Shown here: one piece after another, positions 3,988 to 32,563 of the stretch
Layout: each line of letters opens with the position of its first letter
How positions within the stretch are numbered: position 1 is the stretch's first letter
Assembly (NCBI GenBank): GCA_964583615.1
Contig: CAZOWM010000003.1
Coordinates: forward strand, 30,934-94,933
DNA: 64,000 bases
Direction: 5' to 3'
From: an uncultured Spirochaetota bacterium
GTDB lineage: Bacteria; Spirochaetota; B62-G9; DRHN01
Notes under the pieces: generated by a model
The model's database searches: none
Told to the model about the DNA's origin: nothing
What the model saw: the letters and a program-made list of their open reading frames with translations, nothing else
Translations under genes and position numbers: made by a program

Positions 3988-4043
3988 TTCAGAACCTCCT
4001 GTTCGGCACATACACACACGTCACCGAAGAGTCCACTGCGGCC

Positions 4044-4730: not shown

Positions 4731-5012
4731 TATTGAACACCTCCAGTCGTATTTTGTTCACCCCTATTTCAGGAAAAAATATAAATTTCAGTTAACATAC
4801 CTCAAAAACTGTGTTAAATTTAAGAGTGCCTGCAGTGTTCGTGATGCTGGCTACCCAATTTTTGAGCCAACACTCATATTAAAGGGATGTCAATATCCAC
4901 CTGGGGAATGCACTCACCCGCAGAGGTTTAAGAGTACAGGAAACAGGTGTGCGACGGCCCACCTGATTATTCAGGTTCAAAACGGCCCCGGCACACGGCA
5001 TATGCGGGCTTT

Positions 5013-6767
5013 TTATATCCCCCGTTCGCCCAGTAATATTTTCAGCTGCTTGATATCATGTATGATTTTCTGACGATCATAGTCTTGAAAACGAGAGGGA
5101 ACCATCTCTCGTGAAGTACACTCCATAACTGCGACGAGATTCTGGAGCTCTATCTCGTGCGGGTAGGTCGGCGGCACGAAATCTTCGATGGTTTGCTCGA
5201 GATCGGATTCATTGATGATGATGTGGTTGTTCATCGTGGCGAGAAATTTTGCACGGATCAGGATCGATTCCAGGTCTGCACCGGAAAAATCAAAATTGCT
5301 TCGCTGCAACATACTGACGATATCGATTTTCTGAACTTTCATGCTGAGCTTTTTTACAAGAGTGTTGAACAAGAGCTGTTTTTCTTCGAGTGTTTCGGGG
5401 TAAAACAGTGCGAGGTGCTCCTCGGCCCTCCCCTGTCGTTTGAGGTCAATGGGGATGAGGTCAGGCCTGCACGTGATGAGAAACCAGATGATCTTTCCCC
5501 TGTATTCCGTGTTTCCCATAAAAGACGCAATCTGGGCGAATATCCTGTTGCTCGTGCCGGAATCACCTTCCTGGTTCCTGTGTCCGAGGAATGCATCCGC
5601 CTCATCGATCATCACCCCTACCGGTGCCATTGCCTTGAGTATATTGAGGATTTTCTCAAGATTCGATTCCGTGACTCCCTGCCACTTGCTTCTGAAGTTT
5701 TGAAATTTCACGATTGGAATCCCGATCTCTCCTGCAAAGGCGGTAACCATAAATGATTTTCCAGTTCCCACGGGCCCTGAAATCAGGTATCCCATTGGCA
5801 GAACATCGAGCCTTCCCTGTTTTATCGCCCGAGCTGCACTCTTAAACCGTTTCTTTACAAAATCATGACCTGAGACCATTGAGAGGTCGTATTCTGTCTC
5901 GATGAATTCCAGAAGCCCGATTGCCTCAGCCTCTATGATCTCCTTTTTCTTTTCCTTGAGATAATGAAGGTCTATCTCCCTGTTTTCCTGAAACGACTCT
6001 GCGGCGAGTTGGTGAATGTTCACAAGATTCAGCCCGCTTGTGACCCGCCCCATCATCTCTGCCGAAAGCCCACGCGAAACGATAAGCTCATCCTTTTTAT
6101 GCAGATATTTGAAAAAACTCTCTCTCACCCGCTCGTCCGGAATAGGGATATTGACTTTCACGGTGCTCGGCGACCTGATGATCCGCGGGCTTAGATCTGC
6201 AAGGTTTTCTGTGAGGAGTATGATGGAAATGTCGTTTTCATTGAATATTGGATCTGTTGCCCACCGGTTGAGGGTGACGAGACAGTATCGGTCCTCATCG
6301 GTATAGTGCGAAATGTCAGTACTCGGAACAATCGTCTCTGCATAGTCAACGATCAAAACAATTCTCAGCTTTCGTCTGATGTTTTTGTAACAGTATTTCT
6401 CGAGGTAGTGAAATGCTTCCGAGGGGTCCTTGGAAAGAAAATCATCAGAACCCTCATTCCCGACGATGGATTTCATCTCTGCGAGATATTCCTGCTTCAT
6501 CTCAGGCTTGCAGAAGGTAATTCCGGAGGACCTGTCGTAATAAATGATGATGTCCCTGTTTCCGAAAAGTATGTCGGAAATATAACTCTGTATCTTTACA
6601 AAGATGAACTCCTCCTCATGCATCTTATGAGGAAGGTAATCTCGTATGTTTCCGTATACCACGTAAAGGTTTGCCGTCTTCGAGCAGTACTTGTAGGAAA
6701 GCTCCTGTGCCCAGGAGGGAAGAATCTTGATAAAAGGGAGGTGCTTCAGAATAAGCTGTTCAGCCAC
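5013..6767 (-). CDS. AAA+ ATPase with uncharacterized ~300-aa N-terminal domain
   Basis: C-terminal half has Walker A GPVGTGKS, Walker B VMIDEADAF and a classic-clade AAA second region of homology. The N-terminal ~300 aa match no family I can name. Confidence 0.8.
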   Translation of the reverse strand: MAEQLILKHLPFIKILPSWAQELSYKYCSKTANLYVVYGNIRDYLPHKMHEEEFIFVKIQSYISDILFGNRDIIIYYDRSSGITFCKPEMKQEYLAEMKSIVGNEGSDDFLSKDPSEAFHYLEKYCYKNIRRKLRIVLIVDYAETIVPSTDISHYTDEDRYCLVTLNRWATDPIFNENDISIILLTENLADLSPRIIRSPSTVKVNIPIPDERVRESFFKYLHKKDELIVSRGLSAEMMGRVTSGLNLVNIHQLAAESFQENREIDLHYLKEKKKEIIEAEAIGLLEFIETEYDLSMVSGHDFVKKRFKSAARAIKQGRLDVLPMGYLISGPVGTGKSFMVTAFAGEIGIPIVKFQNFRSKWQGVTESNLEKILNILKAMAPVGVMIDEADAFLGHRNQEGDSGTSNRIFAQIASFMGNTEYRGKIIWFLITCRPDLIPIDLKRQGRAEEHLALFYPETLEEKQLLFNTLVKKLSMKVQKIDIVSMLQRSNFDFSGADLESILIRAKFLATMNNHIIINESDLEQTIEDFVPPTYPHEIELQNLVAVMECTSREMVPSRFQDYDRQKIIHDIKQLKILLGERGI

Positions 6768-11321: not shown

Positions 11322-12503
11322 TCATTTCCCCTTTAAGAGCAGTTCAATGAGTTTGTGTCCCTGTTCAATGAAGATGCCGGACCGCTTCGCCATTTTTTCG
11401 GAATAGCCCTCCACCTCGTTCGGTTCTACTCCGCTTCCGTACAGAATGAAAGGAACGGGTTCCGAAGAATGGGTTTTCGTTCGGATGGGAGTTGGATGGT
11501 CTGGCATGATGAGCATCCGATAATCCCCTTCGAGCCTGGGGAGAATGCTTCCGAGCAGCCGGGAATCAAAATCCTCGATTGCCTTTACCTTCAGCTGTGC
11601 ATCACCCTGATGACCCGTTTCATCCGGCGCTTCAACATGAACGAACACAAAATCTTTCGTCTGAAGTGCGCGGATCGCCGCATCCGCCTTCCCCTCATAG
11701 TTCGTGTCCACAAATCCGGTCGCCCCTTCTACATGCACCACTTCGAGGCCCGCAAGAACACCGATGCCCCGTATCAGGTCCACTGCGGTGATTACGGAAC
11801 CCGAAATACCGTATGTGTCTTCGAACCGCACGAGGCCTGGCCTGTATCCGTGCCCCCACAGCCATATCTGTGTTGCCGGTAGTTTTTCTTCCTGCAGCCG
11901 CCTCCTGTTGACCTCTTCTGCGGCCAGAATAGGTATTGAGCTTTCCATGAGGGAGCGAACGAGATCCTGGTTCTGCCCATTTGGGAGATAGGAGCTTATG
12001 CTCTTTCCGGAAATGTCATGGGGTGGGGTACAGAAAAGATCCTGAAACGAACCTTTCAGCACACAGATGTGCCGATAATCCACACCCGGATAAAAACGTA
12101 CTCCATCGTTGGCAAGTGAAGTGTTGAGTGCATGGATAAGCTTTTTTGCCTCGGCGGTCGAAATGTGCTCCGAGGAGTAATCGTTCATCTGCCCATTTCG
12201 CACGTTTACCAGATTGCACCTGAAAGCGCAGTCATCCTCCCCGAGCGGGATTCCCATGCTCGCCGCCTCGAGGGGGCCTCGCCCCGTGTAGTACGTGCGC
12301 GGATTGAAACCGAGAAGACTGAGATTTGCCACATCACTTCCAGGCGGAAGCCCTTCAGGAATTGTCCTCACCATTCCGACAATACCTTCACGTGCACACC
12401 GGTTCATATTCACAATACGCGCGGCTTCGAGAGGAGTCCTGTCCCCAAGTGAGGGCACAGGCTCGTCCGCCATACCGTCTCCGACAACAAACAGAAATTT
12501 CAT
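11322..12503 (-). CDS. apgM: 2,3-bisphosphoglycerate-independent phosphoglycerate mutase, archaeal/ApgM type
   Basis: 393 aa. N-terminus MKFLFVVGDGMADEP and C-terminal PDHPTP metal-site motif typical of the ApgM branch of the alkaline-phosphatase superfamily. Confidence 0.8.
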   Translation of the reverse strand: MKFLFVVGDGMADEPVPSLGDRTPLEAARIVNMNRCAREGIVGMVRTIPEGLPPGSDVANLSLLGFNPRTYYTGRGPLEAASMGIPLGEDDCAFRCNLVNVRNGQMNDYSSEHISTAEAKKLIHALNTSLANDGVRFYPGVDYRHICVLKGSFQDLFCTPPHDISGKSISSYLPNGQNQDLVRSLMESSIPILAAEEVNRRRLQEEKLPATQIWLWGHGYRPGLVRFEDTYGISGSVITAVDLIRGIGVLAGLEVVHVEGATGFVDTNYEGKADAAIRALQTKDFVFVHVEAPDETGHQGDAQLKVKAIEDFDSRLLGSILPRLEGDYRMLIMPDHPTPIRTKTHSSEPVPFILYGSGVEPNEVEGYSEKMAKRSGIFIEQGHKLIELLLKGK

Positions 12504-12559: not shown

Positions 12560-14044
12560 TCAGCTGTGAGAGGGGGGCCATCTGAGAACCGGATTTCGTG
12601 CTGCTTTCACCTCATCGACCCTGTTGATTTTTGATTTTCTCGGCGCTTTCTTCAGTTCCTTCGGGCGCTCTTTTGCAGCCTCCGCGATCTGGATCATGGC
12701 ATCGATAAATCGGTCAATGGTTTCCCTGCTCTCGGTTTCAGTCGGCTCGATCATCAGAGCCCCATCCACCACAAGGGGAAAATAAATCGTGGGTGGATGG
12801 AACCCGTGGTCGATGAGATTTTTTGCGATATCGAGTGTCGTGATTCCCAGTGGCTTCTGCTCCTTGTCGGTAAAAACGCATTCGTGCATGCAGTTTTTGT
12901 CGTAAGGAAGATGATAATACGGCTTGAGCTTCGAGCGAATATAATTCGCGTTCACAACGGCAGTTGTGCTCGCCTGTCTCAAACCCCGTGCTCCCATAGA
13001 ACATATATACGAATAGGCCTTAACGCAGACTAGAAAATTCCCGTAAAAACTTCGCACCTTTCCGATGGTCTGAGGGCGGTCGTAGCCGAATCTGAACTCC
13101 TCGCCTTCCTTTTCCACGCGTGGAACGGGAAGATAAGGTTCGAAAACCGACTTCACTGCAATGGGCCCCGAACCTGGTCCTCCGCCGCCGTGCGGAGTCG
13201 AAAAAGTCTTGTGGAGGTTCATATGAACGATATCGACCCCAAGTTTTCCTACCTTCACGATTCCCATGAGTGCGTTGAGATTTGCACCGTCGCAGTACAC
13301 AAAACCGCCCTTTTTGTGAACGATCTCGGATATCGCAGCAATATGCGACTCGAACAGACCGAGCGTATTGGGATTCGTGATCATGATCGCCGCAACGTCC
13401 TCGTCCATGAGGGAAGCGACGGTATCCGGCTCGAGTATCCCCTCTTTGCCGGATTTCACCGGTACCGTCTCGAAGCCGCACATTGCCACACTTGCAGGGT
13501 TGGTCCCGTGAGCCGTATCCGGAATCAACACCTTGTGACGTGTGCTGTTCTTTTGCGTACAATATGCTTTGATGATCATCATTGCGGTCAGTTCACCGTG
13601 AGCCCCTGCGGCGGGCTGGAGCGTCACGCAATCCATTCCGGTGATTTCTGCCAGAAATTGTTCAAGCTCCCACAGTACACGCAAACACCCCTGACAAAGG
13701 GATTCCGGTTGAAAGGGATGGCACAATGTGAATCCTCGAAGCGCTGCGATATCTTCGTTGATCTTCGGGTTGTACTTCATAGTGCACGATCCGAGGGGAT
13801 AGAATCCGGTATCAACCCCGTAGTTCCAGTTTGAAAGTCTCGTAAAATGCCGAACGAGCTCGACCTCGCTTATTTCGGGGAATCCGTTTATTTCATCCCG
13901 CATGAGAGATTCAGGAATCGAGCTTTCCGACAAAGGTTTTTCTGTTTCAGGCTCAGGCAGAGAAAAAGCAGTCCTTCCCGGCGACCCAATTTCGAAAATG
14001 AGAGGCTCATCGTGAGCCAGCGTCGTTATGCCCAGAGATTTCAT
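12560..14044 (-). CDS. gcvPB: glycine dehydrogenase (decarboxylating) subunit 2
   Basis: 494 aa, PLP-dependent; matches the GcvPB family with a MNLHKTFSTPHGGGGPG-type PLP-lysine region. Confidence 0.9.
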   Translation of the reverse strand: MKSLGITTLAHDEPLIFEIGSPGRTAFSLPEPETEKPLSESSIPESLMRDEINGFPEISEVELVRHFTRLSNWNYGVDTGFYPLGSCTMKYNPKINEDIAALRGFTLCHPFQPESLCQGCLRVLWELEQFLAEITGMDCVTLQPAAGAHGELTAMMIIKAYCTQKNSTRHKVLIPDTAHGTNPASVAMCGFETVPVKSGKEGILEPDTVASLMDEDVAAIMITNPNTLGLFESHIAAISEIVHKKGGFVYCDGANLNALMGIVKVGKLGVDIVHMNLHKTFSTPHGGGGPGSGPIAVKSVFEPYLPVPRVEKEGEEFRFGYDRPQTIGKVRSFYGNFLVCVKAYSYICSMGARGLRQASTTAVVNANYIRSKLKPYYHLPYDKNCMHECVFTDKEQKPLGITTLDIAKNLIDHGFHPPTIYFPLVVDGALMIEPTETESRETIDRFIDAMIQIAEAAKERPKELKKAPRKSKINRVDEVKAARNPVLRWPPSHS

Positions 14045-14062
14045 TTCCGTTTTCCTTTCGAT

Positions 14063-15412
14063 TTATTTCATTGCGTGTTTTAAAGCTTCACAGAGAATGT
14101 CTATATCCTCCGCGGTATTCGTCTCTGTAAAAGTAAGTAAAATGCAATTCCTCAGCTCGGGGTAGAATTTCTCCATCTGAATCCCGGCAATAATTTTTTT
14201 TTCAATAAGCCTCTTCTCAAGAGTTTCGGAGTCAGCATCAACCTTTATAACGAATTCGTTGAATGTGGGAGAGAAAAATTTAAGCTTTACTGCGCCAAGC
14301 CGGGCGATCTTCTCCTTCGCGTACTCGGCCCGCGCGTGACAGATCCCTGACACACGCCGGATTCCCGTCTTTCCAAGACCGGAAAGATACACCGCGGCCA
14401 TGAGCGCACAGAGCCCCTGATTCGTACACACATTGGATTTTGCTTTTTCTCTCCTTATGTGCTGTTCTCTGGCCGAAAGTGTGAGAACATACGCCTGCCT
14501 TCCGTTTTGATCCTCTGTAAGGCCCACAATTCTTCCCGGCATGTTGCGTACGTACTGTTTCTTCGCAGTAAGAATTCCCAGATAGGGACCCCCAAAACCC
14601 ATCGGGATACCGAGGCTCTGTCCCTCTCCACAGCACATGTCTGCACCGAAATCCCCAGGCGGTTTTAGCACTCCGAATGCGAGTGGCTCTGAAAATGCGG
14701 CAATAAAAAGCGCATCCTTCTCATGGATTATTTTTCCGTATTTTCCGAGGTCCTCTATAATACCGAAGAAGTTCGGTGATTGCAGTACCGCACAGCTCAC
14801 GCCGCCTGCGACGGCTGATTCAAATTGCTTCATGTCCGTCATACCGTTCTCATCATAAGGAATCTCGATAATTTCATTTTCATTTCCGCTGCAGTAGGTT
14901 TCCATTACTTTCCTGTAGTCAGGATGCACGCTCTTTGCGACGACGATCTTCGTTTTTTTCTTCAGCCGCACTGCCATCAGCGCAGCTTCCGCCACACTCG
15001 TTGCCCCGTCGTAGAGTGAGGCGTTTGAAACCTCCATTCCCAGGAGCATGCTGATAAGCGTCTGGAATTCGAACATCGCCTGGAGAGTACCCTGGCTGAT
15101 TTCCGGTTGATACGGGGTATAGGACGTATAAAACTCCGACCTCGACACCAGATGCCTCACCACCGAGGGAATAAAGTGATGATAGACACCTCCTCCGATA
15201 AAGAAACGGTAATCCTGAGCGTTGGCATTTTCCTCACTCAGACGCATCATGTGGGATAAAAGCTCGTATTCTGAAAGTGCATGCGGGAGATTGAGGTCCT
15301 CTCGTAACAGAAATTCTCTCGGAACGATCTCAAAGAGCTCTTCGACATTTTTAACGTTTATATCCGAGAGCATGTCCTGAATATCTGTATCTGTATTCGG
15401 AATGTACCGCAT
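14063..15412 (-). CDS. gcvPA: glycine dehydrogenase (decarboxylating) subunit 1
   Basis: 449 aa; conserved GcvPA N-terminal region (YIPNTD...SF.G.G.Y.H). Confidence 0.9.
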   Translation of the reverse strand: MRYIPNTDTDIQDMLSDINVKNVEELFEIVPREFLLREDLNLPHALSEYELLSHMMRLSEENANAQDYRFFIGGGVYHHFIPSVVRHLVSRSEFYTSYTPYQPEISQGTLQAMFEFQTLISMLLGMEVSNASLYDGATSVAEAALMAVRLKKKTKIVVAKSVHPDYRKVMETYCSGNENEIIEIPYDENGMTDMKQFESAVAGGVSCAVLQSPNFFGIIEDLGKYGKIIHEKDALFIAAFSEPLAFGVLKPPGDFGADMCCGEGQSLGIPMGFGGPYLGILTAKKQYVRNMPGRIVGLTEDQNGRQAYVLTLSAREQHIRREKAKSNVCTNQGLCALMAAVYLSGLGKTGIRRVSGICHARAEYAKEKIARLGAVKLKFFSPTFNEFVIKVDADSETLEKRLIEKKIIAGIQMEKFYPELRNCILLTFTETNTAEDIDILCEALKHAMK

Positions 15413-15441
15413 ACGTTCACCTCGCCTTCATCGGATATGCA

Positions 15442-15831
15442 CTACTCCTCTTCACTTTCAATAAATTTTTCGTAGTCCTCGATCTTCATGAGATTGTCGT
15501 ACTCCGTGCTGTCAACGATTCTGATTTTCACTATCCACCCCTTTTCATAGGGAGACTGATTGAGAATTTCAGGATGACCTTCGAGTTCCTCGTTTATCTC
15601 CAGTACCTCCCCACTCAGCGGTGCATACACATCGCTCGCTGCCTTCACCGACTCAACGACGCAGAACGCTTCTCCCTTTTTGAGCTCTGTGCCGATCTCG
15701 GGGAGCTCCACGAACACCACATCTCCAAGATGCTGCTGTGCGTAATCAGTAATCCCTACGAGAGCCGTATCATTCTCCAAGAGCACCCACTCATGTTCTT
15801 TTGTATACCTTAATTTTTTTGGAAATTCCAT
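15442..15831 (-). CDS. gcvH: glycine cleavage system H protein
   Basis: 129 aa, lipoyl-lysine motif ESVKAASD, N-terminal YTKEHEWV. Confidence 0.9.
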   Translation of the reverse strand: MEFPKKLRYTKEHEWVLLENDTALVGITDYAQQHLGDVVFVELPEIGTELKKGEAFCVVESVKAASDVYAPLSGEVLEINEELEGHPEILNQSPYEKGWIVKIRIVDSTEYDNLMKIEDYEKFIESEEE

Positions 15832-15865
15832 GCCGCATTTCTCCTGTTTGATATCTTCCAGAGTT

Positions 15866-17071
15866 TTATATCTTCACCTGTGAAACAGAGAAAATATTCT
15901 CACTACTGTCCTCGATTTTTCGAACATCCTCTCCTTTCAACATCCCGTCGATCTGTATTCTCGCGCATGCGCCGTCACCGCCCTGAAATATCGTATTTTC
16001 CATGATTTCAACATTTATGCTCGCCTCTCGTATTATATCGAGTACTCCTGCAAGCACACCGACTCTGTTTCGGTGATGCACAGACAGCACATAACTCGCT
16101 GGAGTCTTCTCCAAATAATTTACACAGTTGTATACGTATCCTGTCCTGATATATTCAATCAAAATCCGCAGTGTTTCATCAGCAACAGCAGACTGCGCCT
16201 GCTCGGTCGAAGCACCGATGTGGTGCGTACCGTACACACGCTCATACGTGCCTATTTCGTCTGTAAAAGGACCCTTCTTTTGTGCGGGTTCACCATCAAA
16301 CACATCGAGTCCCGCATGGATTCTTTTCCTTACGACCGCATCCTTCAAAGCATCCTGATCCACAACCTCCGCCCGAGATGTGTTTATGAAAAACGCCCCT
16401 TCTTTCATCGCGTTGAAAAACTCTTTTCCGATCATCTTTCTGGTATCATCAGCAAGCGCGACGTGCACACTCACCGCATCCGCATGACGGGCAACATCGA
16501 TCGGAGTGCTCATATATTCAACTCCCAACTCATCCGCCTTCTCAGGAGTCAGAGACCTGCTCCACGCCACTACTTTCATGCCGAACACAGTCGCCCGCAC
16601 TATCACCTCCCGGCCTATCCGCCCCACCCCGATAACACCGAGCGTTTTTCCATAGATACCCCCCGCTTGGCTGAACTCCTTCTTGTTCCACCTTCCCGCT
16701 CTCAGCTGAATGACATTATCCGGAATTCTTCTGTCAATACTCAATAGAAGCCCGAACGCAAGCTCTGCAACCGCAATGGAATTCTTTCCTGGACAGTTCG
16801 CCACATACACGCTTCTCTCCGAAGCGGTCTTCACATCAATCGTGTTGAAACCGGAACCTGCGCGGATGATAAGGCTTAAAAAAGGAGTTGATGAGATCAT
16901 TTCACCGGTCACGACTGTCGACCGCACGACGAGAACGTCGGGCTGCTGCTCGTGTAACCCCTCGAGGAGACTGTCCCCATCCAGTGATTGCTCGTACACA
17001 ACAGCACACCCCAGCTCTTTGATTCTCTCAATACTTTCTTCAGGAAACTTATCCGCAATAAATACTTTCAT
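15866..17071 (-). CDS. serA: D-3-phosphoglycerate dehydrogenase with C-terminal ACT domain
   Basis: Start MKVFIADKF (ATG 17071). NAD-binding GVIGVGRIGREV; 2-hydroxyacid dehydrogenase catalytic region; ACT-like C-terminus. Confidence 0.85.
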   Translation of the reverse strand: MKVFIADKFPEESIERIKELGCAVVYEQSLDGDSLLEGLHEQQPDVLVVRSTVVTGEMISSTPFLSLIIRAGSGFNTIDVKTASERSVYVANCPGKNSIAVAELAFGLLLSIDRRIPDNVIQLRAGRWNKKEFSQAGGIYGKTLGVIGVGRIGREVIVRATVFGMKVVAWSRSLTPEKADELGVEYMSTPIDVARHADAVSVHVALADDTRKMIGKEFFNAMKEGAFFINTSRAEVVDQDALKDAVVRKRIHAGLDVFDGEPAQKKGPFTDEIGTYERVYGTHHIGASTEQAQSAVADETLRILIEYIRTGYVYNCVNYLEKTPASYVLSVHHRNRVGVLAGVLDIIREASINVEIMENTIFQGGDGACARIQIDGMLKGEDVRKIEDSSENIFSVSQVKI

Positions 17072-17096
17072 AGCCTGCCTCCCGCACATTACATCT

Positions 17097-18320
17097 TTAA
17101 AATTGATGTATCAGAATTCCGGAACGCAGTTTCGGAACAAACCAGGTGGATTTAGGCGGCATAACCTCTCCTGCATCACTTACCGCAAGCAGTTGTTCTA
17201 TGCGCACCGGATTGAAACTGAAAGCCACCCCACCGTTCTCATCGACCAATCTCTTCAGTTTTTCGATGCTCTGCTCCCCGCCGATAAAATCTATCCGCTT
17301 GTCATTTCTCTGGTCAGTAATGCCCAATACCGGCTCCAGAAGCTCTCGCTGAAACAGATTGAGGTCGAGTGATGAGGCGGGGTCCTCAGAAACTTCTTCA
17401 TCCGCGTGCAGCCCGAGACTGTACCACCTTCCGGAAAGGTACATGCAGATGCGCCCTTTCCCCTTGGGCACGCCCGTATCGGATGCTTTTATTTCGAAAT
17501 GTTCACCGACTTTTTCGAGAAATTCTTCACCGCTGGAGCCCCCCAAATCGGAAATCCATCTGTTGTAGGGGAGGATTTTCAGCTGCTTGTCTCCAAAAAG
17601 CACAGCGAGAAAGTAATTGAAATCCTCGTCACCTGAGACGGCCCCGTGAATCTCCTTCATTGCATTTTTCACTCTGCTCGCACCCGCAGCCCTGTGGTGT
17701 CCGTCCGCAATGTAGAGGCAGGGGACTGCGGCAAACTCCTCGACGATTCGCTCACCGGCTTGCGCTTGCCAGACTGTGTGCCGTATTCCGTCTTCTGCAA
17801 CAAAATCGTACAGTGGAGCGTTCTTCGTCTCTCGCTCGATAATACTGTTTATTCCGCCCTGTTCCCTGTAGGTCATCAACACGGGGCCAGCGTGAGCTGA
17901 CAACGTGAGCATGTGCTTCAGCCTGTCGTCCTCCTTCTCCTTTCGGGTGTGTTCGTGTTTTTTTATTATGCCGGCATCGTATTCATCGACCGAACAGCAG
18001 CATGCAACACCTGTCTGGGCGTGATTGTTCATCTCGAGTCTGTATATATAGATTGACGGATCCTGTTCCTTTATGAGGACACCTTCGCTCTCGAGCCGGT
18101 GGAAATTCTTCAGCGCCTGCTGGTAGACTTCTTCCGAGTAGAGATCGGTCCCTTCGGCGAGATCGATTTCGGGTCTGATTACATGGAGAAAGCTCAGGGG
18201 ATTTCCCTTTACGAGTTCCCTCGCCTCAGCCGTTGTTACAACGTCATAGGGAACGCTTGCCACTTCCCTGCACGTCTGCTCCATGGGCCGCATCGCGCGA
18301 AAAGGTCTTATCGTCGCCAT
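17097..18320 (-). CDS. DUF1015-family protein
   Basis: 407 aa (MATIRPFRA...); matches the conserved DUF1015 family. Located between serA and the glyA-gcvT fusion. Confidence 0.75.
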   Translation of the reverse strand: MATIRPFRAMRPMEQTCREVASVPYDVVTTAEARELVKGNPLSFLHVIRPEIDLAEGTDLYSEEVYQQALKNFHRLESEGVLIKEQDPSIYIYRLEMNNHAQTGVACCCSVDEYDAGIIKKHEHTRKEKEDDRLKHMLTLSAHAGPVLMTYREQGGINSIIERETKNAPLYDFVAEDGIRHTVWQAQAGERIVEEFAAVPCLYIADGHHRAAGASRVKNAMKEIHGAVSGDEDFNYFLAVLFGDKQLKILPYNRWISDLGGSSGEEFLEKVGEHFEIKASDTGVPKGKGRICMYLSGRWYSLGLHADEEVSEDPASSLDLNLFQRELLEPVLGITDQRNDKRIDFIGGEQSIEKLKRLVDENGGVAFSFNPVRIEQLLAVSDAGEVMPPKSTWFVPKLRSGILIHQF

Positions 18321-18345
18321 TGGTTTCTCCTTTTCTTCGATTTGA

Positions 18346-21300
18346 TCATTCAGTAAAACGCCCTTCTTCAGGAAACCTGCTTATTATGCGCGCATCATCA
18401 TGGAGCTGAACCCTGTCGCCGATACGCGGTCTCTCTGAGGCCGTTTTTTTCTCCTTCTCCTCACGCTGACACGCGATAACGCCGATGGGTGTGCCCTCCC
18501 GGGCGTATCTCCTGTCAACATACGCCATGCCGACCTGGACACCGTCTGTTCCAAGGGCACAGCTGGTCACCATGCCAATTATTTTCTGCCCTCTCTTGGC
18601 TACGACAATATCGTCCGTGCGTGCGATTCTCACGCCCGGCCTGCTCATCCTGAAACGTACGATCTCCATTTTCATCGAATTCATATTTCTCATCAGTGCG
18701 TTTCTTCCGATGAAAAAGGGTTTGTGAAGCTTTACATATGATCCGAACCCGGCCTCAACCGGTGAAATGCCGAGCTCTCCTGCAAGCTCATGCCCGTACA
18801 GGGGAAGACCCGCCTCGATTCTCAGAGAATCACGCGCTCCAAGACCGATCGGTTTTACACCGAACCGTGCCCCTTGGTCCAAAACCGCATTCCAGAACCG
18901 GACCGCCGCATCAGGATGAAGAAGGAGCTCAAAACCTGTGTCCTCTCCGGTATATCCGGTGCGGCTTACATACATCCTTATTCCCGCAATTTCCGCCTCT
19001 ATAAACTGTGTCTTTTGCACCCTTTCGAGCTTTTTGCTGCACCCGGCTGAACCTGCGAGCGCTTTTAACACGAGAAGCGAATTTGGTCCCTGAAGAGCGA
19101 TATTCACAAGACAGTCAACTCCCCATGCCCTGTTTTTCAGATTACGAATCTCAACCCCGCCGGGTGGACGAAGTGTGGGATTGTTCCTGCCTGCCGGTAC
19201 GTCGCCGGATTTCACCGCTTTCATCCATTCGAGATCCCGGTCACTGTTGACCGCATTGACGATGATGATATATCGCTCATTTCCCACCCGGTACACCATG
19301 ATATCGTCGATAACTCCTCCGTCAGGATCGAGAAGATAACTGTACTGGGACTCCCAATTTGTTATCCACGGCACATAGTTTGTTGTAACGATATCCAGGA
19401 AACTCTCCGCATACTCGCCCCTGACTTCGATAATTCCCATATGGGAGATGTCGAAAATACCGCATGCCTCCCGAACTGTCCTGTGCTCTTCGACGATTCC
19501 TTCATATTTTACCGGCATGAGCCACCCCGCAAACTCAACGAGGCTCTTCGTCAGTTTCACATGCTCTGCATAGAGACAGCTCTTTTTGACAGGCTTCTGG
19601 CCCTCTCCGAACACAAACTCCTTCTCCGCTCCGTCCCGGGAAGAGGCAATCATGCTCTGTGCAACGAAATACGGTTTCGACATGTCGATGAACTGTGGTG
19701 CGCGCGCAGCAAGATCACGGACATCTTCTCCCCTGCCGAACGCTGAAAAGGCGGTTTCTTCTATACCCAACGCTTTCACGGAGCGTGCGATTCTCTCCCT
19801 GTCACCTGCGGAGAGCTCGTGAAAGTCATAGATCTGTGCCGGGCCCTCAACCTTTTTGAAAATATCTTCAGAATCGAATTCCACATAGCCGTCCGCAACT
19901 CCCCGAAGCCACTCTCTCAAATCCTCTCCATCTTCGGGTCTGCACACCACGCAGTACTCGTCAGCCGACTCACGAAACACGTAAGTGAAGGCAAGCAGCT
20001 TTCCTCCCCTGTCAAAAAAAAACGAGTAACACCCTTCCCCCTTTGCTCGCCTCCCTACTGAATTGGTGGTGACCTGCTCGATGAACCGATGCACCCGTTC
20101 ACCCTTCAGCAAAAGAACCCCGTGAGTGTTTTCCGCCGAGAAAGGCCTGACCGGTGTAAAAACTGTATAGTGCGGATACCCTGTTCCCAGAGATGCCCTC
20201 TCGGAGCTCAGCGACCCCGCCAGGTCGGCAACTCTCCGTCTGGCTTCTCTCAGTACACCGTAGTCGACCTTTCCTCTCGGGAGGTCGCCGGTGAGGCCGA
20301 GATAGGTAAAGGGACGTATGTTTTTGAGCACGAATGCAATAATACCCGCCAGTTTTTCGATCCCCTGTTTCGTGATGCCTCTCTGTGTAATCCATGGAGT
20401 ACCGAGCCTGATTCCGCTTGCTTCGGCGGTCATCGTATCTCCGGGAATCGTATTCTTGTTGGCCACGATTCCGCACAGGTCGAGCATCCGCACACCGATT
20501 TCCCCTTTCAGCGGAAACCCGCTTTCCGTCTTGATCTTTCCGAGATCAAGAAGCAGGAGATGGGTATCCGTTCCGCCGTACGCGAGCGTCATCCCCTCGT
20601 TTTCAAGGGCACGCGCAAGATATGCGGCGTTTCTGACGATTGCCTTCTGGGCCCTTTTGAACTCCTCGCTCTGAGCGATTCTGAATGCAACCGCCATTGC
20701 TGCAAACTTGTTCACATGAGGCCCCCCCTGCTCCCCCGGAAACACGGACTGGTCGATCATCCGGCCGTACTCTTCGTTTGCCGTCATTATAATGGCCCCG
20801 CGCGGCCCGAAGAGAGTCTTGTGCGTGGTACAGGTAACCACATCTGCATAGTCGATCGGGTTTGGGTACACACCGCCGACGATCAGGCCGGCGGGATGCG
20901 AGATATCTGCAAAGAGAACGGCGTCCACCGCATCCGCGATCTGTCTGAATTTCTCCCAGTCGGGCGCCCAGGGATAGGAGGTATAACCTGCAATGATCAT
21001 CTTTGGGCGGTGCGTCTCTGCCAGATCCATGATGTCATCGTAATTGAGACGTCCCGTTGCGGCATCCACTTCATAGGAAACGATCGTGTAGTTTTTTCCC
21101 GATCTGTTGAACTCACTGCCGTGAGTGAGATGGCCGCCGTGCATGAGACTCAATCCCATGACAACATCCCCTGGATGCACAAAGGTATCGTACACAGAAT
21201 TGTTCGCGGCAGCTCCCGAGAGAGGCTGCACATTTACGTGTATGCAATTCGCAGGAGTTCTTTCCGTGGCAAAGAGTTCAGCAGCCCTCCTTCCTGCAAG

Positions 21301-21702
21301 GGATTCCACAAAGTTTGCGTAGTCGCATCCCTTGTAGAACCTGCGGTCGGAATATCTTCGCAAGCGGGCGAGCTGAAAGTCAATATCGAGTAAACCGTTT
21401 TCATCTTCGCCGGTCATTTTTGCAGGGGGATACCCCTCTGCATAAATATTGTTGAAAACCGATCCAAGCGCTTCAAGAACAGGAGCGGGGCAGATGCTCT
21501 CTGACGGAATCATCACGATCTTTCGGGTTTGCCGCTCCTGCTCGAAATCGATAAGTTTTTTTACCTCCGGATCAATGTCTTCAAGCGCTTTCCTGAGATA
21601 ATAATCGATGAAAGTTTCTGTGCTCACGTTTTTTCCCCATCCGATAGATTGGAAAATGAATACGCAGGGATTGTACTTCACGCTATCCGTGTTTATTCGC
21701 AA
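18346..21702 (-). CDS. glyA/gcvT: fusion protein: serine hydroxymethyltransferase (N-terminal ~470 aa), partial GcvT-like folate-binding module, complete aminomethyltransferase GcvT (C-terminal ~400 aa)
   Basis: Single 1118-aa ORF. The N-terminal part carries SHMT motifs (VLEALGS..YAEGYP, TTHKTLFGPRGAI with the PLP lysine). The middle has GVLLLKGERVHRFIEQVTTNSV, which is GcvT-like. The C-terminal part is a complete GcvT (GIFDISHMG...GARDSLRIEAGLPLYGHEL). Confidence 0.8.
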   Translation of the reverse strand: MRINTDSVKYNPCVFIFQSIGWGKNVSTETFIDYYLRKALEDIDPEVKKLIDFEQERQTRKIVMIPSESICPAPVLEALGSVFNNIYAEGYPPAKMTGEDENGLLDIDFQLARLRRYSDRRFYKGCDYANFVESLAGRRAAELFATERTPANCIHVNVQPLSGAAANNSVYDTFVHPGDVVMGLSLMHGGHLTHGSEFNRSGKNYTIVSYEVDAATGRLNYDDIMDLAETHRPKMIIAGYTSYPWAPDWEKFRQIADAVDAVLFADISHPAGLIVGGVYPNPIDYADVVTCTTHKTLFGPRGAIIMTANEEYGRMIDQSVFPGEQGGPHVNKFAAMAVAFRIAQSEEFKRAQKAIVRNAAYLARALENEGMTLAYGGTDTHLLLLDLGKIKTESGFPLKGEIGVRMLDLCGIVANKNTIPGDTMTAEASGIRLGTPWITQRGITKQGIEKLAGIIAFVLKNIRPFTYLGLTGDLPRGKVDYGVLREARRRVADLAGSLSSERASLGTGYPHYTVFTPVRPFSAENTHGVLLLKGERVHRFIEQVTTNSVGRRAKGEGCYSFFFDRGGKLLAFTYVFRESADEYCVVCRPEDGEDLREWLRGVADGYVEFDSEDIFKKVEGPAQIYDFHELSAGDRERIARSVKALGIEETAFSAFGRGEDVRDLAARAPQFIDMSKPYFVAQSMIASSRDGAEKEFVFGEGQKPVKKSCLYAEHVKLTKSLVEFAGWLMPVKYEGIVEEHRTVREACGIFDISHMGIIEVRGEYAESFLDIVTTNYVPWITNWESQYSYLLDPDGGVIDDIMVYRVGNERYIIIVNAVNSDRDLEWMKAVKSGDVPAGRNNPTLRPPGGVEIRNLKNRAWGVDCLVNIALQGPNSLLVLKALAGSAGCSKKLERVQKTQFIEAEIAGIRMYVSRTGYTGEDTGFELLLHPDAAVRFWNAVLDQGARFGVKPIGLGARDSLRIEAGLPLYGHELAGELGISPVEAGFGSYVKLHKPFFIGRNALMRNMNSMKMEIVRFRMSRPGVRIARTDDIVVAKRGQKIIGMVTSCALGTDGVQVGMAYVDRRYAREGTPIGVIACQREEKEKKTASERPRIGDRVQLHDDARIISRFPEEGRFTE

Positions 21703-22771
21703 ACCGCCTCATAAAATCTGCAACCCTCTCTATGTCTTCCACTCCGTGACTATTGTATATGGATATCCGAATCCCTCCCACCGAGCGATGCCCCTTGATT
21801 CCGATGATTCCTTCCGATGCTGCATCCTCGATAAACCGTGCCTCGAGCGTGTCGTCTGTGAGATTGAAAGTGATGTTCATATCCGAACGGCTCTCCTTTT
21901 CAACCCGCGACAAAAAGAACGGGGAATTCTCGTCGATGAGTGTGTAGAGTATTTCAGCCTTTTTTTTGTTCTGCGCTTCGATGAAATCAAGCCCTCCTTT
22001 TTTCTCTACCCACTTCAGCATGTTTCTCATCATATACACGCAGAAGCAGCAGGGCGTATTATAGAGAGAGTTTTTCTCAACGAGCGTCCTGTAACTGAGA
22101 ATATCAGGGAGTGAAGGGAGTGCCCTTTTCACTAAGTCGTCCCGTATGAGCACAACCGTGACGCCGGCAGGCCCGAGATTTTTCTGCGCCCCCGCATAAA
22201 TCAATCCAATACCGGAAAAATCAATTCTTCTGGAGAATATATCGCTCGACATGTCCGCAACAATGGGAACTCCCTCAATATCGGGGAACTCTCTCCATTG
22301 TGTTCCAAAAATCGTATTGTTTGAGGTGAGGTGGCAGTAAACCGAGCCCTTTACAATATGTATCTCATCCTGTTTCGGTATACGGAAATATTTCCCTTCG
22401 GCCTCTGTAGACACGGCAAGATGGACCTCTTTCAGGGTTTTTGCGGTCTTGTATGCATTGTTTGAAAACCGCCCTGTAACAATATAGTCAGCCGCATCGC
22501 CCTCTCCGAGCAGATTCATCGGTATCATCGCAAACTGCAGCGACGCTCCCCCCTGCAGAAGAAGAATGTGAAAATTTCTTGGAATACCGTAGAGCCCTCG
22601 CAAAAGTTCAATTGCTTCCTGATGAACCGCACTGTATTCCTTTGAACGATGGCTTATCTCCAAAACGGACATACCGGTTCCGCCCCAGTCCAGAAGCTCT
22701 CTCTGCGCCTGCTCGAGTGTTTCTAACGGCAGAGCCGAAGGACCCGGGTAAAAATTCATTACTCTTTTCAT
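21683..22771 (-). CDS. serC: phosphoserine aminotransferase
   Basis: Start MKRVMNFYPGPSALP (ATG 22771) forms ATGA coupling with the stop of the upstream small ORF. Class V aminotransferase; SerC-like throughout. Confidence 0.85.
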   Translation of the reverse strand: MKRVMNFYPGPSALPLETLEQAQRELLDWGGTGMSVLEISHRSKEYSAVHQEAIELLRGLYGIPRNFHILLLQGGASLQFAMIPMNLLGEGDAADYIVTGRFSNNAYKTAKTLKEVHLAVSTEAEGKYFRIPKQDEIHIVKGSVYCHLTSNNTIFGTQWREFPDIEGVPIVADMSSDIFSRRIDFSGIGLIYAGAQKNLGPAGVTVVLIRDDLVKRALPSLPDILSYRTLVEKNSLYNTPCCFCVYMMRNMLKWVEKKGGLDFIEAQNKKKAEILYTLIDENSPFFLSRVEKESRSDMNITFNLTDDTLEARFIEDAASEGIIGIKGHRSVGGIRISIYNSHGVEDIERVADFMRRFANKHG

Positions 22772-23067
22772 CGTCTGTTCCTCCATATGAACTGTGCTGC
22801 ATATCGGTCAAACTTCGCCCTGATCTCGTTTGACCGTTCTTCCGTTTCTTCCAGTTTCATCTCCTTGCAGTGATAGCCGAACATACCTTTCATGGTGATT
22901 AACCATAGGATTCCCATTTTCAACAGCGCATACGGGCCTGCACCGCCTTTGATGATGAGAATGGGCATCGAACCGCTCCGGCGATTTGCGGTGAGATGAA
23001 AATACTCTCGCAATCCACCCTTCAAATATCGCTCGATCTTATCTTCTCGTGGACCGCAAGTTGGCAT
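22768..23067 (-). CDS. hypothetical protein (99 aa or shorter)
   Basis: ORF whose stop overlaps the serC start (ATGA). No recognizable family. Confidence 0.3.
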   Translation of the reverse strand: MPTCGPREDKIERYLKGGLREYFHLTANRRSGSMPILIIKGGAGPYALLKMGILWLITMKGMFGYHCKEMKLEETEERSNEIRAKFDRYAAQFIWRNRR

Positions 23068-23106
23068 ATAGGTTCTCTCTATGGGATGATTAATATTTAT
23101 TCTAAT

Positions 23107-23133
23107 TTTTACATAATATTATATATTGTCAAG
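23107..23133 (-). promoter_or_regulatory. candidate promoter for the serC/gly operon
   Basis: A perfect TTGACA on the minus strand (plus tgtcaa 23128-23133), followed about 15 nt later by TGTAAAAAT (extended -10-like), inside a 245-bp AT-rich intergenic region. Confidence 0.25.
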
Positions 23134-23313
23134 CAAAATTACGTTATCAGAATTAAATATTATATATTTTACGAAATTAACGGATTCGGTGTGTATTCAT
23201 TCGATCTCGCGATATCCACGTTCAGCGTCTCTTGCGGTCTTATTGTAGTATACACTGAAGAGAGCAAAAAGGCATATACTTTTCAGGAGTATGGGGCGCC
23301 CTGATTCGGGCGT

Positions 23314-23589
23314 TCACTCGGAGTGTTTCTTTTTATGGGGAGGATGTTCGGAGGTTTTTTTCTTTTTTTCGAAAAAGCCTCCTATATCTCCGATCCTGTC
23401 GATGGATAATTTCGAGGCGTCGATGTTTTCCTTCTGGATCGCAAGGTACACCTCTTTTCTGTGCACCTTGATATCCCGGGGGGCTTTAATACCGAGCTTG
23501 ACCTGGTCACCTTTTACTTCGATGACGCTCACCTCAACAGAGTCCCCGATCATGATGCTTTCGTTGCGTTTCCGCGTGAGAACAAGCAT
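23314..23589 (-). CDS. csrA: carbon storage regulator CsrA (with C-terminal extension)
   Basis: [47 protein letters not shown] core. About 30 extra C-terminal residues, as in FliW-partnered CsrA proteins. Confidence 0.85.
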
Positions 23590-30180: not shown

Positions 30181-31617
30181 TTATTCGACGTTGCAGATGT
30201 AGCTTTGCTCCATTTCAGTGTAGGTGATTGAGCACTCCTTTCCAAGAGTGCGTTCCGCCTCCTCCACCGCCTCTTCTACGGTATGAAAGGGTTCGAACCC
30301 AACAAGACGGGCCGCTTCGAAATCTTTTGCCCCTGCAAGAAAGACTCTGGAAAGATACCTGAATCCGTATGCACCCTGCCCGTAGAGAATAAACGGGTGC
30401 GCGCCGTGAAACCCAAACCCATACCTGTATTTGTGTACGTATTCGGGCCTGTGGGCAAACTCCTCTGCATAGAGCTCCCACAGCTCAAAAGGGTCTTTCA
30501 GATGGGGCAGCAGTCTCTCGAACATTTCGACGTAGGATGGATACTTCACACGGTCGAATGTTCGGGTGCATGGGTGTACGAGGATGATGATTCCCTTCTC
30601 TCTCACCAATGGCCTGTTCTGAAACAGTCCGAAACTGTAGGACATACCGAGGTTTCTCACCAGTATGGGGTTGGTTTGTGACATCTTGGAGTATGGGTCC
30701 CTGCTGTTTCCCATCCCATACACCACCATATCAGACTGCCCGTTAACGGTTTCCACGTGCTGTTTCTGCAGTATTTCCAGTGTCTTTTTATGAGCCTCAG
30801 GAGGGTGCCCCGCAACAACTTGAACAACTGCCTGAGGAATCTCGTTGTTCATCGCCGCCTCTATCTGAAAATAGCGTCGTCCCCTTCGGGCAAGCTCCTT
30901 CTCTATCACCGCTCCCATCTCGTTTAAAAGCTTCGGGAAGGCGGAACGCTCAGGATCCATTGTTGATTTTCCCCCGGCCTTCGGGTAGGGTCGATGGTGA
31001 TGGCGTATACTGCGGTAGCTCGAGAGCCCCACTACGGCAGACTTCCAGCCTCCGTTGAAGTGAGACCAGGGATTGCTCACGTAAATAAACTGGTCGGAAT
31101 CGACAACGAGGCGGTTTACTTCCACCTCCATGTTTCGCTTCGTTTCGCCCAGAAAGCGGAGATTGCCTGCGTCTTCCGCGTCATGATTGAAGAGTGAGCT
31201 CGGGCCCCATCGATACCCGATATCTTCACCGATGATTGTGCTGAGCTCTCTTGTCGTCCACTTCCTGTGGAGACCCACAGCGCACACGAGACGGATATTT
31301 CCCCGATCTACTCCGAGGCCATCGAGCTCCTGGAGCAGTACCTTGACGGCCACTCCACGAAAATCAGGCTGTCTCTGCGCAGGGCAGAATCCTATGGGGT
31401 CGTCAAACCCGATGGTCACCACAGACTTCGGCCCCACAAGCTTTGAGAGCGGCTCATGTTCGATGGGATTGTTGAGTGCATCCCGAACTGCCTTTTCGAT
31501 GTCATGCAGAGCCGGGATCGGGGGTGTCGTCTGCCTTATTATTCTCGTTCTCTGGGGAAGTTTTGCTTCGAGGAAACTCGTGCCGTAAGGAATAAAAAAC
31601 CTGTTTTCGTCTTTCAT
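30181..31617 (-). CDS. LarA-like (DUF2088, lactate racemase N-terminal domain) protein
   Basis: N-terminal pattern FIPYG...LP, P.P.L.D..A...AL..PI, TIGFDD, AVGLHR, NGGWKSAV matches the DUF2088/LarA superfamily. Start MKDENRFF preferred. Confidence 0.55.
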   Translation of the reverse strand: MKDENRFFIPYGTSFLEAKLPQRTRIIRQTTPPIPALHDIEKAVRDALNNPIEHEPLSKLVGPKSVVTIGFDDPIGFCPAQRQPDFRGVAVKVLLQELDGLGVDRGNIRLVCAVGLHRKWTTRELSTIIGEDIGYRWGPSSLFNHDAEDAGNLRFLGETKRNMEVEVNRLVVDSDQFIYVSNPWSHFNGGWKSAVVGLSSYRSIRHHHRPYPKAGGKSTMDPERSAFPKLLNEMGAVIEKELARRGRRYFQIEAAMNNEIPQAVVQVVAGHPPEAHKKTLEILQKQHVETVNGQSDMVVYGMGNSRDPYSKMSQTNPILVRNLGMSYSFGLFQNRPLVREKGIIILVHPCTRTFDRVKYPSYVEMFERLLPHLKDPFELWELYAEEFAHRPEYVHKYRYGFGFHGAHPFILYGQGAYGFRYLSRVFLAGAKDFEAARLVGFEPFHTVEEAVEEAERTLGKECSITYTEMEQSYICNVE

Positions 31618-31681
31618 CGTTTCATCCTCAACACAGCAGAAGCCGGGCACCAAGGCTAGGTGGAAAACTGAGAGATGTCTT

Positions 31682-32532: not shown

Positions 32533-32563
32533 GCAAAAAATTTCACGCGCCCTTTACCGCGTG
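32533..32563 (-). terminator. intrinsic terminator of tkt (hairpin overlaps the stop codon)
   Basis: Minus-strand RNA: CACGCG, an 8-nt loop, CGCGUG (6-bp GC stem), then AAAUUUUUUGC. The TGA stop lies in the 3' arm of the stem. Confidence 0.45.

Follow-up and report, generated by a model that had tools for sequence, protein, structure and literature searches.

A DUF1015 (SerBK-family) gene in a spirochaete operon that joins serine genes to glycine cleavage genes and an SHMT-GcvT fusion

The HAD phosphatase SerB converts phosphoserine to serine, and proteins of the DUF1015 family have been linked to the same step. Here we describe the DUF1015 gene in a 64-kb stretch of DNA from an uncultured spirochaete (the window, meaning the whole stretch that was analysed), in which it shares a minus-strand operon with serC, serA and genes of the glycine cleavage system. 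The DUF1015 gene in the serC-serA operon of C. difficile has been proposed to dephosphorylate phosphoserine (Hofmann et al. 2018, PMC6110889). The GapMind 2026 preprint reports that the DUF1015 protein CBO1128 of C. botulinum rescues an E. coli serB::kan mutant, and names the family SerBK (bioRxiv 10.1101/2024.10.14.618325). According to the same preprint, DUF1015 homologues often adjoin serA and serC, SerB is absent in 47 of the 50 genomes in which a close DUF1015 homologue lies beside serA, and the predicted structure of DUF1015 resembles that of the serine kinase SbnI. B. thetaiotaomicron holds both SerB and a DUF1015 protein, BT1151, which is needed for growth with L-serine as nitrogen source (bioRxiv 10.1101/2024.10.14.618325). 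The equilibrium constant of the reverse serine-kinase reaction is estimated at about 4e-4, and the preprint's authors leave open in what way a kinase would achieve net serine synthesis (bioRxiv 10.1101/2024.10.14.618325).

Against this background, the remark in a preliminary description of the window that DUF1015 has no established function is outdated, the SerBK role having been published. Its proposal that the gene is a candidate for the missing phosphoserine-to-serine step finds support in the work on C. difficile (PMC6110889), in the complementation by CBO1128, and in the orthology and neighbourhoods reported below. Because earlier publications already assign DUF1015 to the SerB gap, the locus adds confirmation rather than discovery on this point. 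What is new is that a serine operon is joined to glycine cleavage genes and to a fusion of serine hydroxymethyltransferase (SHMT) with GcvT, in an arrangement kept in a Spirochaetota lineage, and that a HomK-like phosphotransferase gene lies directly downstream of the operon.

The DUF1015 gene of the window (17097..18320, minus strand) encodes a protein of 407 aa, which scores 342 bits against PF06245 (gathering score 25.8) and covers profile positions 1-323 of 325. The alignment with the C. difficile orthologue of CDIF630erm_01132 (L076) spans the full length (residues 1-407 versus 1-414), with 45% identity, 65% positives and an E-value of 3e-133. BT1151, accepted by the preprint's authors as belonging to the family, shares 47% identity with that C. 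difficile protein (bioRxiv 10.1101/2024.10.14.618325); the window protein is as distant from that protein as BT1151 is. The family comprises 1744 representatives at E<=1e-30, and 37 residues, all the motifs named below included, are invariant across 80 DUF1015 proteins from many phyla. With the SerBK proteins CDIF630erm_01132, CBO1128 and BT1151, the window protein shares the Pfam family, the length, the serA/serC neighbourhood (its gene lies 25 nt upstream of serA and in the same operon as serC), the invariant motifs and the resemblance to SbnI. It differs from them in its host, an uncultured spirochaete, and in its operon, to which an SHMT-GcvT fusion, gcvH and gcvPAB are added. From orthology and context, we infer that this particular DUF1015 protein stands in for SerB.

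A scan of 51 open reading frames (ORFs) across the window with Pfam and NCBIfam models gave no match to HAD, SerB or any other known phosphoserine phosphatase family, so that the earlier observation of no serB/HAD-type gene in the operon holds for the window as well. The DUF1015 protein itself matched no HAD or SerB model, and its fold search returned no HAD structure. In genetic terms it serves the same pathway step as SerB, given that DUF1015 rescues a serB mutant, whereas its fold is unrelated, HAD motifs are lacking, and its chemistry is probably phosphoryl transfer, SerB being an aspartyl-phosphate hydrolase.

The co-occurrence of DUF1015 with serA was examined in 80 DUF1015 loci obtained from a scan of species-representative genomes. 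This independent sample of 80 species includes Acidobacteriota, Bacteroidota, Verrucomicrobiota, Planctomycetota, Bacillota (with C. difficile), Myxococcota, Gammaproteobacteria and others. In 41 of the 80 loci, DUF1015 had a homologue of serA, serC or both <=6 kb away, and only in L013 did this neighbour lie on the opposite strand; among the 47 loci having at least 3 kb on both flanks, serA or serC stood beside DUF1015 in 24. When the neighbours were clustered, SerC was found in 32 loci, always on the same strand, and the SerA type of the window in 23, with further, more distant SerA-like genes beyond these 23. No other neighbour family appeared in more than six of the 80 loci. Since SerC and SerA are the sole recurrent neighbours, DUF1015 does not associate with unrelated pathways in most genomes. 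None of the 80 sampled loci had genes for SHMT or glycine cleavage beside DUF1015, and the larger cluster is therefore specific to the spirochaete lineage.

The AlphaFold2 model of the DUF1015 protein (pLDDT 93.8, pTM 0.91) was searched against the PDB with Foldseek. SerK, 1vk1 or SbnI accounted for all of the top nine matches, with E-values of 1e-8 to 2e-6, before a drop to 0.02 at the tenth, and the predicted structure has the two-domain fold of serine kinases. The motif D206-G-H-H-R210, invariant in the 80 DUF1015 sequences, corresponds to D-G-H-H-R in SerK and D-G-V-H-R in SbnI; its context is L-I-V-D-G-H-H-R in SerK and L-Y-I-A-D-G-H-H-R in DUF1015. GxxR has been described as the phosphate-binding P-motif of the ParB/Srx fold (PMC12704722). 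The catalytic Glu30 of SerK lies in K-P-H-E and Glu20 of SbnI in L-H-E-T, and DUF1015 carries an invariant K-H122-E123-x-T125 within K-K-H122-E123-H-T; the SerK mutants E30A and E30Q are named in the titles of crystal entries in the PDB. Because these motifs match those of SerK and SbnI and are invariant across the 80 DUF1015 proteins, a serine-kinase-type active site appears to be kept in the window protein.

At the level of sequence, neither phmmer nor a profile search of the PDB matched DUF1015 to any solved structure, SerK and SbnI being missed even at E<=10. Since recognisable sequence homology was not found, the protein is not filed as a member of the SerK/SbnI family. For the motif comparison, the SbnI sequences and SerK residues 21-102 were taken from PDB alignments. 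Comparison with SbnI by hhalign gave three weak collinear matches, the best of which (363-396 versus 172-205, E 0.0026, probability 11%) joins the invariant C-terminal block M-P-P-K-S-T-W-F to T-V-P-A-G-V-T-R-F of SbnI. DUF1015 residues 202-214 were paired with SbnI 54-66, and H122-E123 was paired with the H-E motif of SerK and SbnI only in a low-confidence alternative alignment. Compared with SerK (Thermococcus kodakarensis TK0378, PDB 5x0b and others) and SbnI (Staphylococcus, 5uje, 5ujd, 6nr6), DUF1015 is about 165 residues longer and has inserted elements; SerK and SbnI supply the synthesis of cysteine or siderophores, and neither is known to replace SerB. DUF1015 has the SerK/SbnI fold and probably works in a similar way.

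The operon occupies positions ~12560-23100 on the minus strand and consists, in order, of serC, the SHMT-GcvT fusion gene, the DUF1015 gene, serA, gcvH, gcvPA and gcvPB, as identified with Pfam and NCBIfam; the gene content and order given in the preliminary description are thus borne out. Starts were chosen by Shine-Dalgarno spacing and by the gene calls in relatives. The serC gene (21683..22771) encodes a phosphoserine transaminase of 362 aa (NF003764, 474 bits; TIGR01364, 470 bits; above cut-off). Its longest ORF covers 21683-22786, and the ATG at 22771, favoured by the spacing to GGAGG and by 362-aa calls in relatives, is probably the true start. The fusion gene (18346..21627; longest ORF, 18346-21702) probably starts at the GTG at 21627, which gives a protein of 1093 aa composed of SHMT (GlyA; PF00464, 396 bits), a middle domain and the T-protein GcvT (PF01571, 276 bits), with scores above cut-off on NF000586 and TIGR00528. 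The serA-like gene (15866..17071; longest ORF, 15866-17089; start probably the ATG at 17071) encodes a D-3-phosphoglycerate dehydrogenase of 401 aa that matches PF02826 and PF00389 and has a C-terminal ACT-like region (weak ACT match); its scores on TIGR01327 (264 bits) and NF008759 (208 bits) are each below the equivalog cut-off. The remaining genes are gcvH, encoding the glycine cleavage H-protein (15442..15831; TIGR00527, 173 bits, above cut-off), gcvPA, encoding glycine dehydrogenase subunit 1 (14063..15412; NF001696, 620 bits), and gcvPB, encoding subunit 2 (12560..14044; NF003346, 733 bits).

All seven genes are identified by Pfam, and all except DUF1015 and serA reach curated NCBIfam cut-offs. 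Of the glycine cleavage system, the P-protein (two subunits), the H-protein and the T-protein (the C-terminal part of the fusion) score above cut-offs, and no gene for the L-protein, dihydrolipoamide dehydrogenase, was found within the window; it may be encoded elsewhere. With the best-supported starts, the gaps from serC to gcvPB are 55, 25, 25, 34, 29 and 18 nt. The junctions, previously described as short or overlapping, are therefore short but do not overlap, and no minus-strand terminator-like site was found in any of the operon gaps.

The arrangement recurs beyond the window. An identical DUF1015 protein with the same neighbours was found on four independent metagenome contigs from four samples, and the operon order is repeated in four relatives with protein identities of 58-87%, namely L091 (87%), L092 (63%), L085 (61%) and L090 (58%). 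In L085, the closed 3.5-Mb Spirochaetota contig CP070841.1, a 68-aa GDC-P fragment (16188-16391) takes the place of gcvPA and gcvPB at the end of the operon, and the P-protein genes may be decaying or relocated; the serA gene of this contig is a short form of 321 aa without the ACT-like tail. In L090 (3030-9693), serC is absent upstream of the operon. The genes that precede it there encode a divergent AsnC/Lrp-type regulator, a methyltransferase of the MttB family, a URO-D-like protein and an ABC transporter, neighbours which suggest a quaternary-amine or one-carbon source feeding the same pathway. Moreover, the longest contigs of 20 DUF1015 clusters and 20 fusion clusters are of identical size, and they are therefore taken to be shared contigs. 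The nearest named homologues are in metagenome-assembled genomes of Spirochaetota. Because the order recurs in relatives and on independent contigs, and the 20 matched pairs point to shared contigs, the cluster is a conserved trait of the lineage and not the product of chance.

These results point to a coherent role for the operon. The DUF1015 protein would be a SerBK-family enzyme, with the two-domain fold and the catalytic motifs of free L-serine kinases, that interconverts O-phospho-L-serine and L-serine and in this way supplies the step of the HAD phosphatase SerB. One promoter would drive its gene together with serC, serA and the genes for the SHMT-T-protein fusion, GcvH, GcvPA and GcvPB. 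In the resulting chain of reversible steps, 3-phosphoglycerate would be interconverted with phosphohydroxypyruvate by SerA, the latter with phosphoserine by SerC, phosphoserine with serine by SerBK, serine with glycine and methylene-tetrahydrofolate (methylene-THF) by SHMT, and glycine with CO2, NH3 and methylene-THF by the T-, H- and P-proteins, the L-protein being supplied from elsewhere. Through a single shared transcript, 3-phosphoglycerate, phosphoserine, serine, glycine and methylene-THF would be linked. We consider this SerBK reading of the operon as a whole likely; it draws on the family membership, fold and motifs of the protein, on the structure and conservation of the operon, and on the published genetic replacement of SerB by family members.

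Because the fold is that of a serine kinase and not of a phosphatase, "phosphatase" may be the wrong word for the chemistry. Nucleotide-linked phosphoryl transfer through the conserved Glu123 and Asp206-Gly-His-His-Arg210 appears the more plausible mechanism, since a kinase-type site is conserved. Simple hydrolysis at the same site is a tentative and less favoured alternative, which would resolve the thermodynamic objection. The net flux may go either way according to supply; arguments for biosynthesis are that SerA has an ACT-like tail and that DUF1015 is distributed in genomes lacking SerB.

Several points weigh against the SerBK reading. The published support for the family is genetic. A serine kinase working backward is thermodynamically unfavourable (Keq about 4e-4), and the sole reported loss-of-function phenotype, that of BT1151, concerns the use of serine and not its synthesis (bioRxiv 10.1101/2024.10.14.618325). 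About half of the sampled DUF1015 genes are not beside serA or serC, and the identity to the prototype is only 45%, in a comparison made to the C. difficile protein and not to CBO1128. In addition, a canonical serB may exist outside the 64-kb window. In sequence, the protein resembles SerK and SbnI only weakly (no PDB match; hhalign probability 11%), and the residue equivalences rest on the agreement of motifs and fold, not on superposition. A diphosphate-serine phosphotransferase is classified as EC 2.7.1.80; a literature search on pyrophosphate as donor or acceptor returned nothing usable, and a role for it here is conjectural.

The SHMT-GcvT fusion belongs to a family of at least 120 homologous clusters, of which the best 120 are all 1060-1280 aa long and contain both domains. 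Its hosts are Spirochaetota, Anaerolineae, Aerophobetes and unnamed bacteria, in which the protein is annotated merely as GcvT or SHMT. The SHMT motif T-T-H-K-T, which carries the pyridoxal phosphate lysine, is invariant across the family. The middle stretch of ~200 residues (about 500-700) carries invariant residues of its own, and its core is a diverged copy of the N-terminal subdomain of GcvT (24% identity over 106 residues, E 7e-10). A literature search found no paper describing an SHMT-GcvT fusion. The classical sets for comparison are the E. coli gcvTHP genes (gcv operon) and glyA, and the clusters with a two-subunit P-protein, gcvT-gcvH-gcvPA-gcvPB. As judged by these, the H, PA and PB proteins of the window score above equivalog cut-offs and the T-protein and SHMT domains above family cut-offs, whereas the T-protein is fused behind SHMT via an extra GcvT-like subdomain, genes for serine biosynthesis stand in among those for glycine cleavage, and the L-protein gene is not in the window.

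Longer fusions of 1220-1250 aa do not lie beside serA, serC or DUF1015; their neighbours are a LarA-like protein, a glycerate kinase (MOFRL), a GlcF-like iron-sulfur protein, a transketolase or an aminotransferase. In the window, two genes 8-11 kb upstream of the operon encode a LarA-like protein (30181-31653, minus strand), which scores below cut-off for the nickel-pincer hydroxyacid isomerase family, and a transketolase (32543-34555, minus strand). LarA-like, transketolase and glycerate kinase genes also adjoin the longer fusions in unrelated bacteria (L086, L088, L089), which may be coincidence.

Directly downstream of the operon lies a gene for an ApgM-like/HomK-like phosphotransferase of 393 aa (11322-12503, minus strand). 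It is probably co-transcribed with the operon, as it begins 56 nt after gcvPB on the same strand and no terminator-like site was found between the two. The protein scores 545 bits on TIGR02535 (cut-off 446), a model named for a proposed homoserine kinase, and about equally on the cofactor-independent phosphoglycerate-mutase models NF003242 (557) and TIGR00306 (519). TIGR02535 proteins (HomK) have been described as replacing ThrB, with a Glu in place of the Lys of true mutases (bioRxiv 10.1101/2024.10.14.618325). In the window protein, the catalytic Ser56 and the metal ligands are present. Glu291, which aligns with the Lys of the archaeal-type phosphoglycerate mutases 2zkt and 3kd8 and is kept as Glu in five homologues, would be equivalent to E299 of BT2402. 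Set against HomK/ThrB2 (TIGR02535; BT2402) by model score and residues, the window gene differs in lying near asd and not near hom. It comes straight after gcvPB in the window, L001/L002 and L091 alone, follows asd in L090, and is absent from L092 and L085; because its position varies among relatives, it is an accessory neighbour and not part of the core. A role as the core phosphoglycerate mutase of the operon found no support, given the variable position and the HomK-type Glu. The preprint's authors speculate that phosphoserine is the phosphate donor of HomK (bioRxiv 10.1101/2024.10.14.618325), and the position of a possible phosphoserine consumer behind a phosphoserine-making operon is suggestive in this respect.

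Given that glycine cleavage genes, which are catabolic elsewhere, share a transcript with serA and serC, the operon might instead be mainly assimilatory or catabolic. SerBK would then be a forward serine kinase, not a substitute for SerB, and would serve as the entry enzyme of the phosphoserine route: serine would arise, by the glycine cleavage system and the fused SHMT, either out of glycine (2 Gly -> Ser + CO2 + NH3) or out of one-carbon units, and reversed SerC and SerA would yield 3-phosphoglycerate for central metabolism. The fold and motifs are indeed those of serine kinases, thermodynamics favours the kinase direction, and growth on L-serine requires BT1151 (bioRxiv 10.1101/2024.10.14.618325). 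From the pathway stoichiometry, the NADH produced by glycine cleavage would be used by reversed SerA. Next to the L090 operon lie an AsnC-type regulator and a cluster for a methyltransferase of the MttB type, a URO-D-type protein and an ABC transporter, the cluster being consistent with a one-carbon or glycine source. In L086 and L088, the longer fusion is beside a glycerate kinase (MOFRL family, as annotated), an enzyme of the non-phosphorylated route from serine to phosphoglycerate in serine-cycle metabolism. The window also carries genes for peptide uptake and amino-acid fermentation, namely Opp, an M20 peptidase and an indolepyruvate oxidoreductase.

However, SerA keeps its C-terminal ACT-like region (weak match), which is typical of biosynthetic enzymes under feedback control by serine, and a serine dehydratase route to pyruvate would need no ATP. 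Furthermore, DUF1015 is found beside serA mostly in SerB-less genomes that still need serine (bioRxiv 10.1101/2024.10.14.618325). The assimilatory or catabolic account is also compatible with the SerBK reading, as the enzyme may work both ways. On balance we hold this account to be possible but unlikely, and a route from glycine and serine to phosphoglycerate seems doubtful as the main role of the operon. Rather unlikely, too, is a self-contained route from glycine and one-carbon units to 3-phosphoglycerate, in which SerBK phosphorylates serine and the HomK-like enzyme shares the phosphoserine pool for homoserine. If this self-contained route were real, the fusion would pass methylene-THF directly between its two folate sites, and the operon would represent a phosphoserine branch of glycine or reductive-glycine assimilation, which to our knowledge has not been demonstrated in bacteria.

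Phosphoserine might also be dephosphorylated by other means, either by SerB or another phosphatase encoded elsewhere or by HomK-like transfer to homoserine, with DUF1015 having some other serine-linked role. The visible sequence is 64 kb of a genome, B. thetaiotaomicron has SerB in addition to DUF1015 (bioRxiv 10.1101/2024.10.14.618325), and the gene after gcvPB, above the TIGR02535 cut-off and with Glu for the mutase Lys, resembles proteins for which phosphoserine has been suggested as donor. We consider this explanation improbable: a DUF1015 gene alone complements serB::kan, and 47 of 50 genomes with DUF1015 beside serA have no SerB (bioRxiv 10.1101/2024.10.14.618325). The serine released by HomK could not exceed what the small flux into threonine allows, and HomK is absent near the operon in L092 and L085, whereas DUF1015 is always present. 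Finally, although the source is a metagenome assembly, the notion that the genes came together by chance or through misassembly, without functional meaning, can be dismissed, ruled out as it is by the same DUF1015 protein and gene order on four independent contigs from four samples, by an order retained in four more loci at 58-87% identity (the closed 3.5-Mb contig among them), and by 20 matched DUF1015/fusion cluster pairs on apparently shared contigs.

Upstream of serC, a sigma-70-like promoter candidate (23105..23132, minus strand) reads TTGACA-16 nt-AAAAAT with an upstream TG; it scores 10/12, the best in the region, and is kept in L091. The candidate is a consensus match only, and the region as a whole contains no more sites of this kind than shuffles do. 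It lies in the AT-rich gap after the fliW-csrA flagellar operon, in which csrA (23314-23589, minus strand, 91 aa) follows fliW with a 1-nt overlap, as in other flagellar operons, and ends the upstream transcription unit. The 5' leader of serC (22772..23098, minus strand, about 310 nt) is 87% identical to that of L091 and aligns only with this closest relative, more distant relatives carrying short leaders. The upper limit of the operon had earlier been placed at 23067, a coordinate set by a spurious 99-aa ORF (22768-23067). In the 87%-identical L091, this ORF has no ATG and contains an in-frame stop, with substitutions distributed evenly among the codon positions (11/14/13). It was therefore rejected as a gene and, judged by this comparison, is a non-coding portion of the leader, newly recognised here. 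A riboswitch or T-box upstream of serC was rejected as well, no such match reaching the Rfam gathering score in the window or the four related loci; at E<=5, a search of 22700-23330 returned nothing but a meaningless 9.5-bit match. The fold energy of the leader is unremarkable (z-score -1.6). From the comparison of two sequences, the leader could be a lineage-specific regulatory RNA.

Other genes of the window encode flagellar proteins, a hexokinase, peptide transporters and an indolepyruvate oxidoreductase. The hexokinase (2674-4017, minus strand) is of the eukaryote type (PF00349 and PF03727) and matches no NCBIfam model. A 6S RNA gene is located at 4824-5014 on the plus strand (Rfam RF00013, 76.8 bits, full length).

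The operon arrangement itself is undescribed, and the locus provides a test bed for the chemistry of SerBK and HomK and for the fusion. It constitutes a natural experiment on whether SerBK is a kinase, a phosphatase or a reversible phosphotransferase, and it also bears on whether HomK takes its phosphate from phosphoserine. With SerBK wired together with glycine cleavage, with the SHMT-T-protein fusion and, in some members, with HomK, the locus yields testable predictions about the direction of flux.

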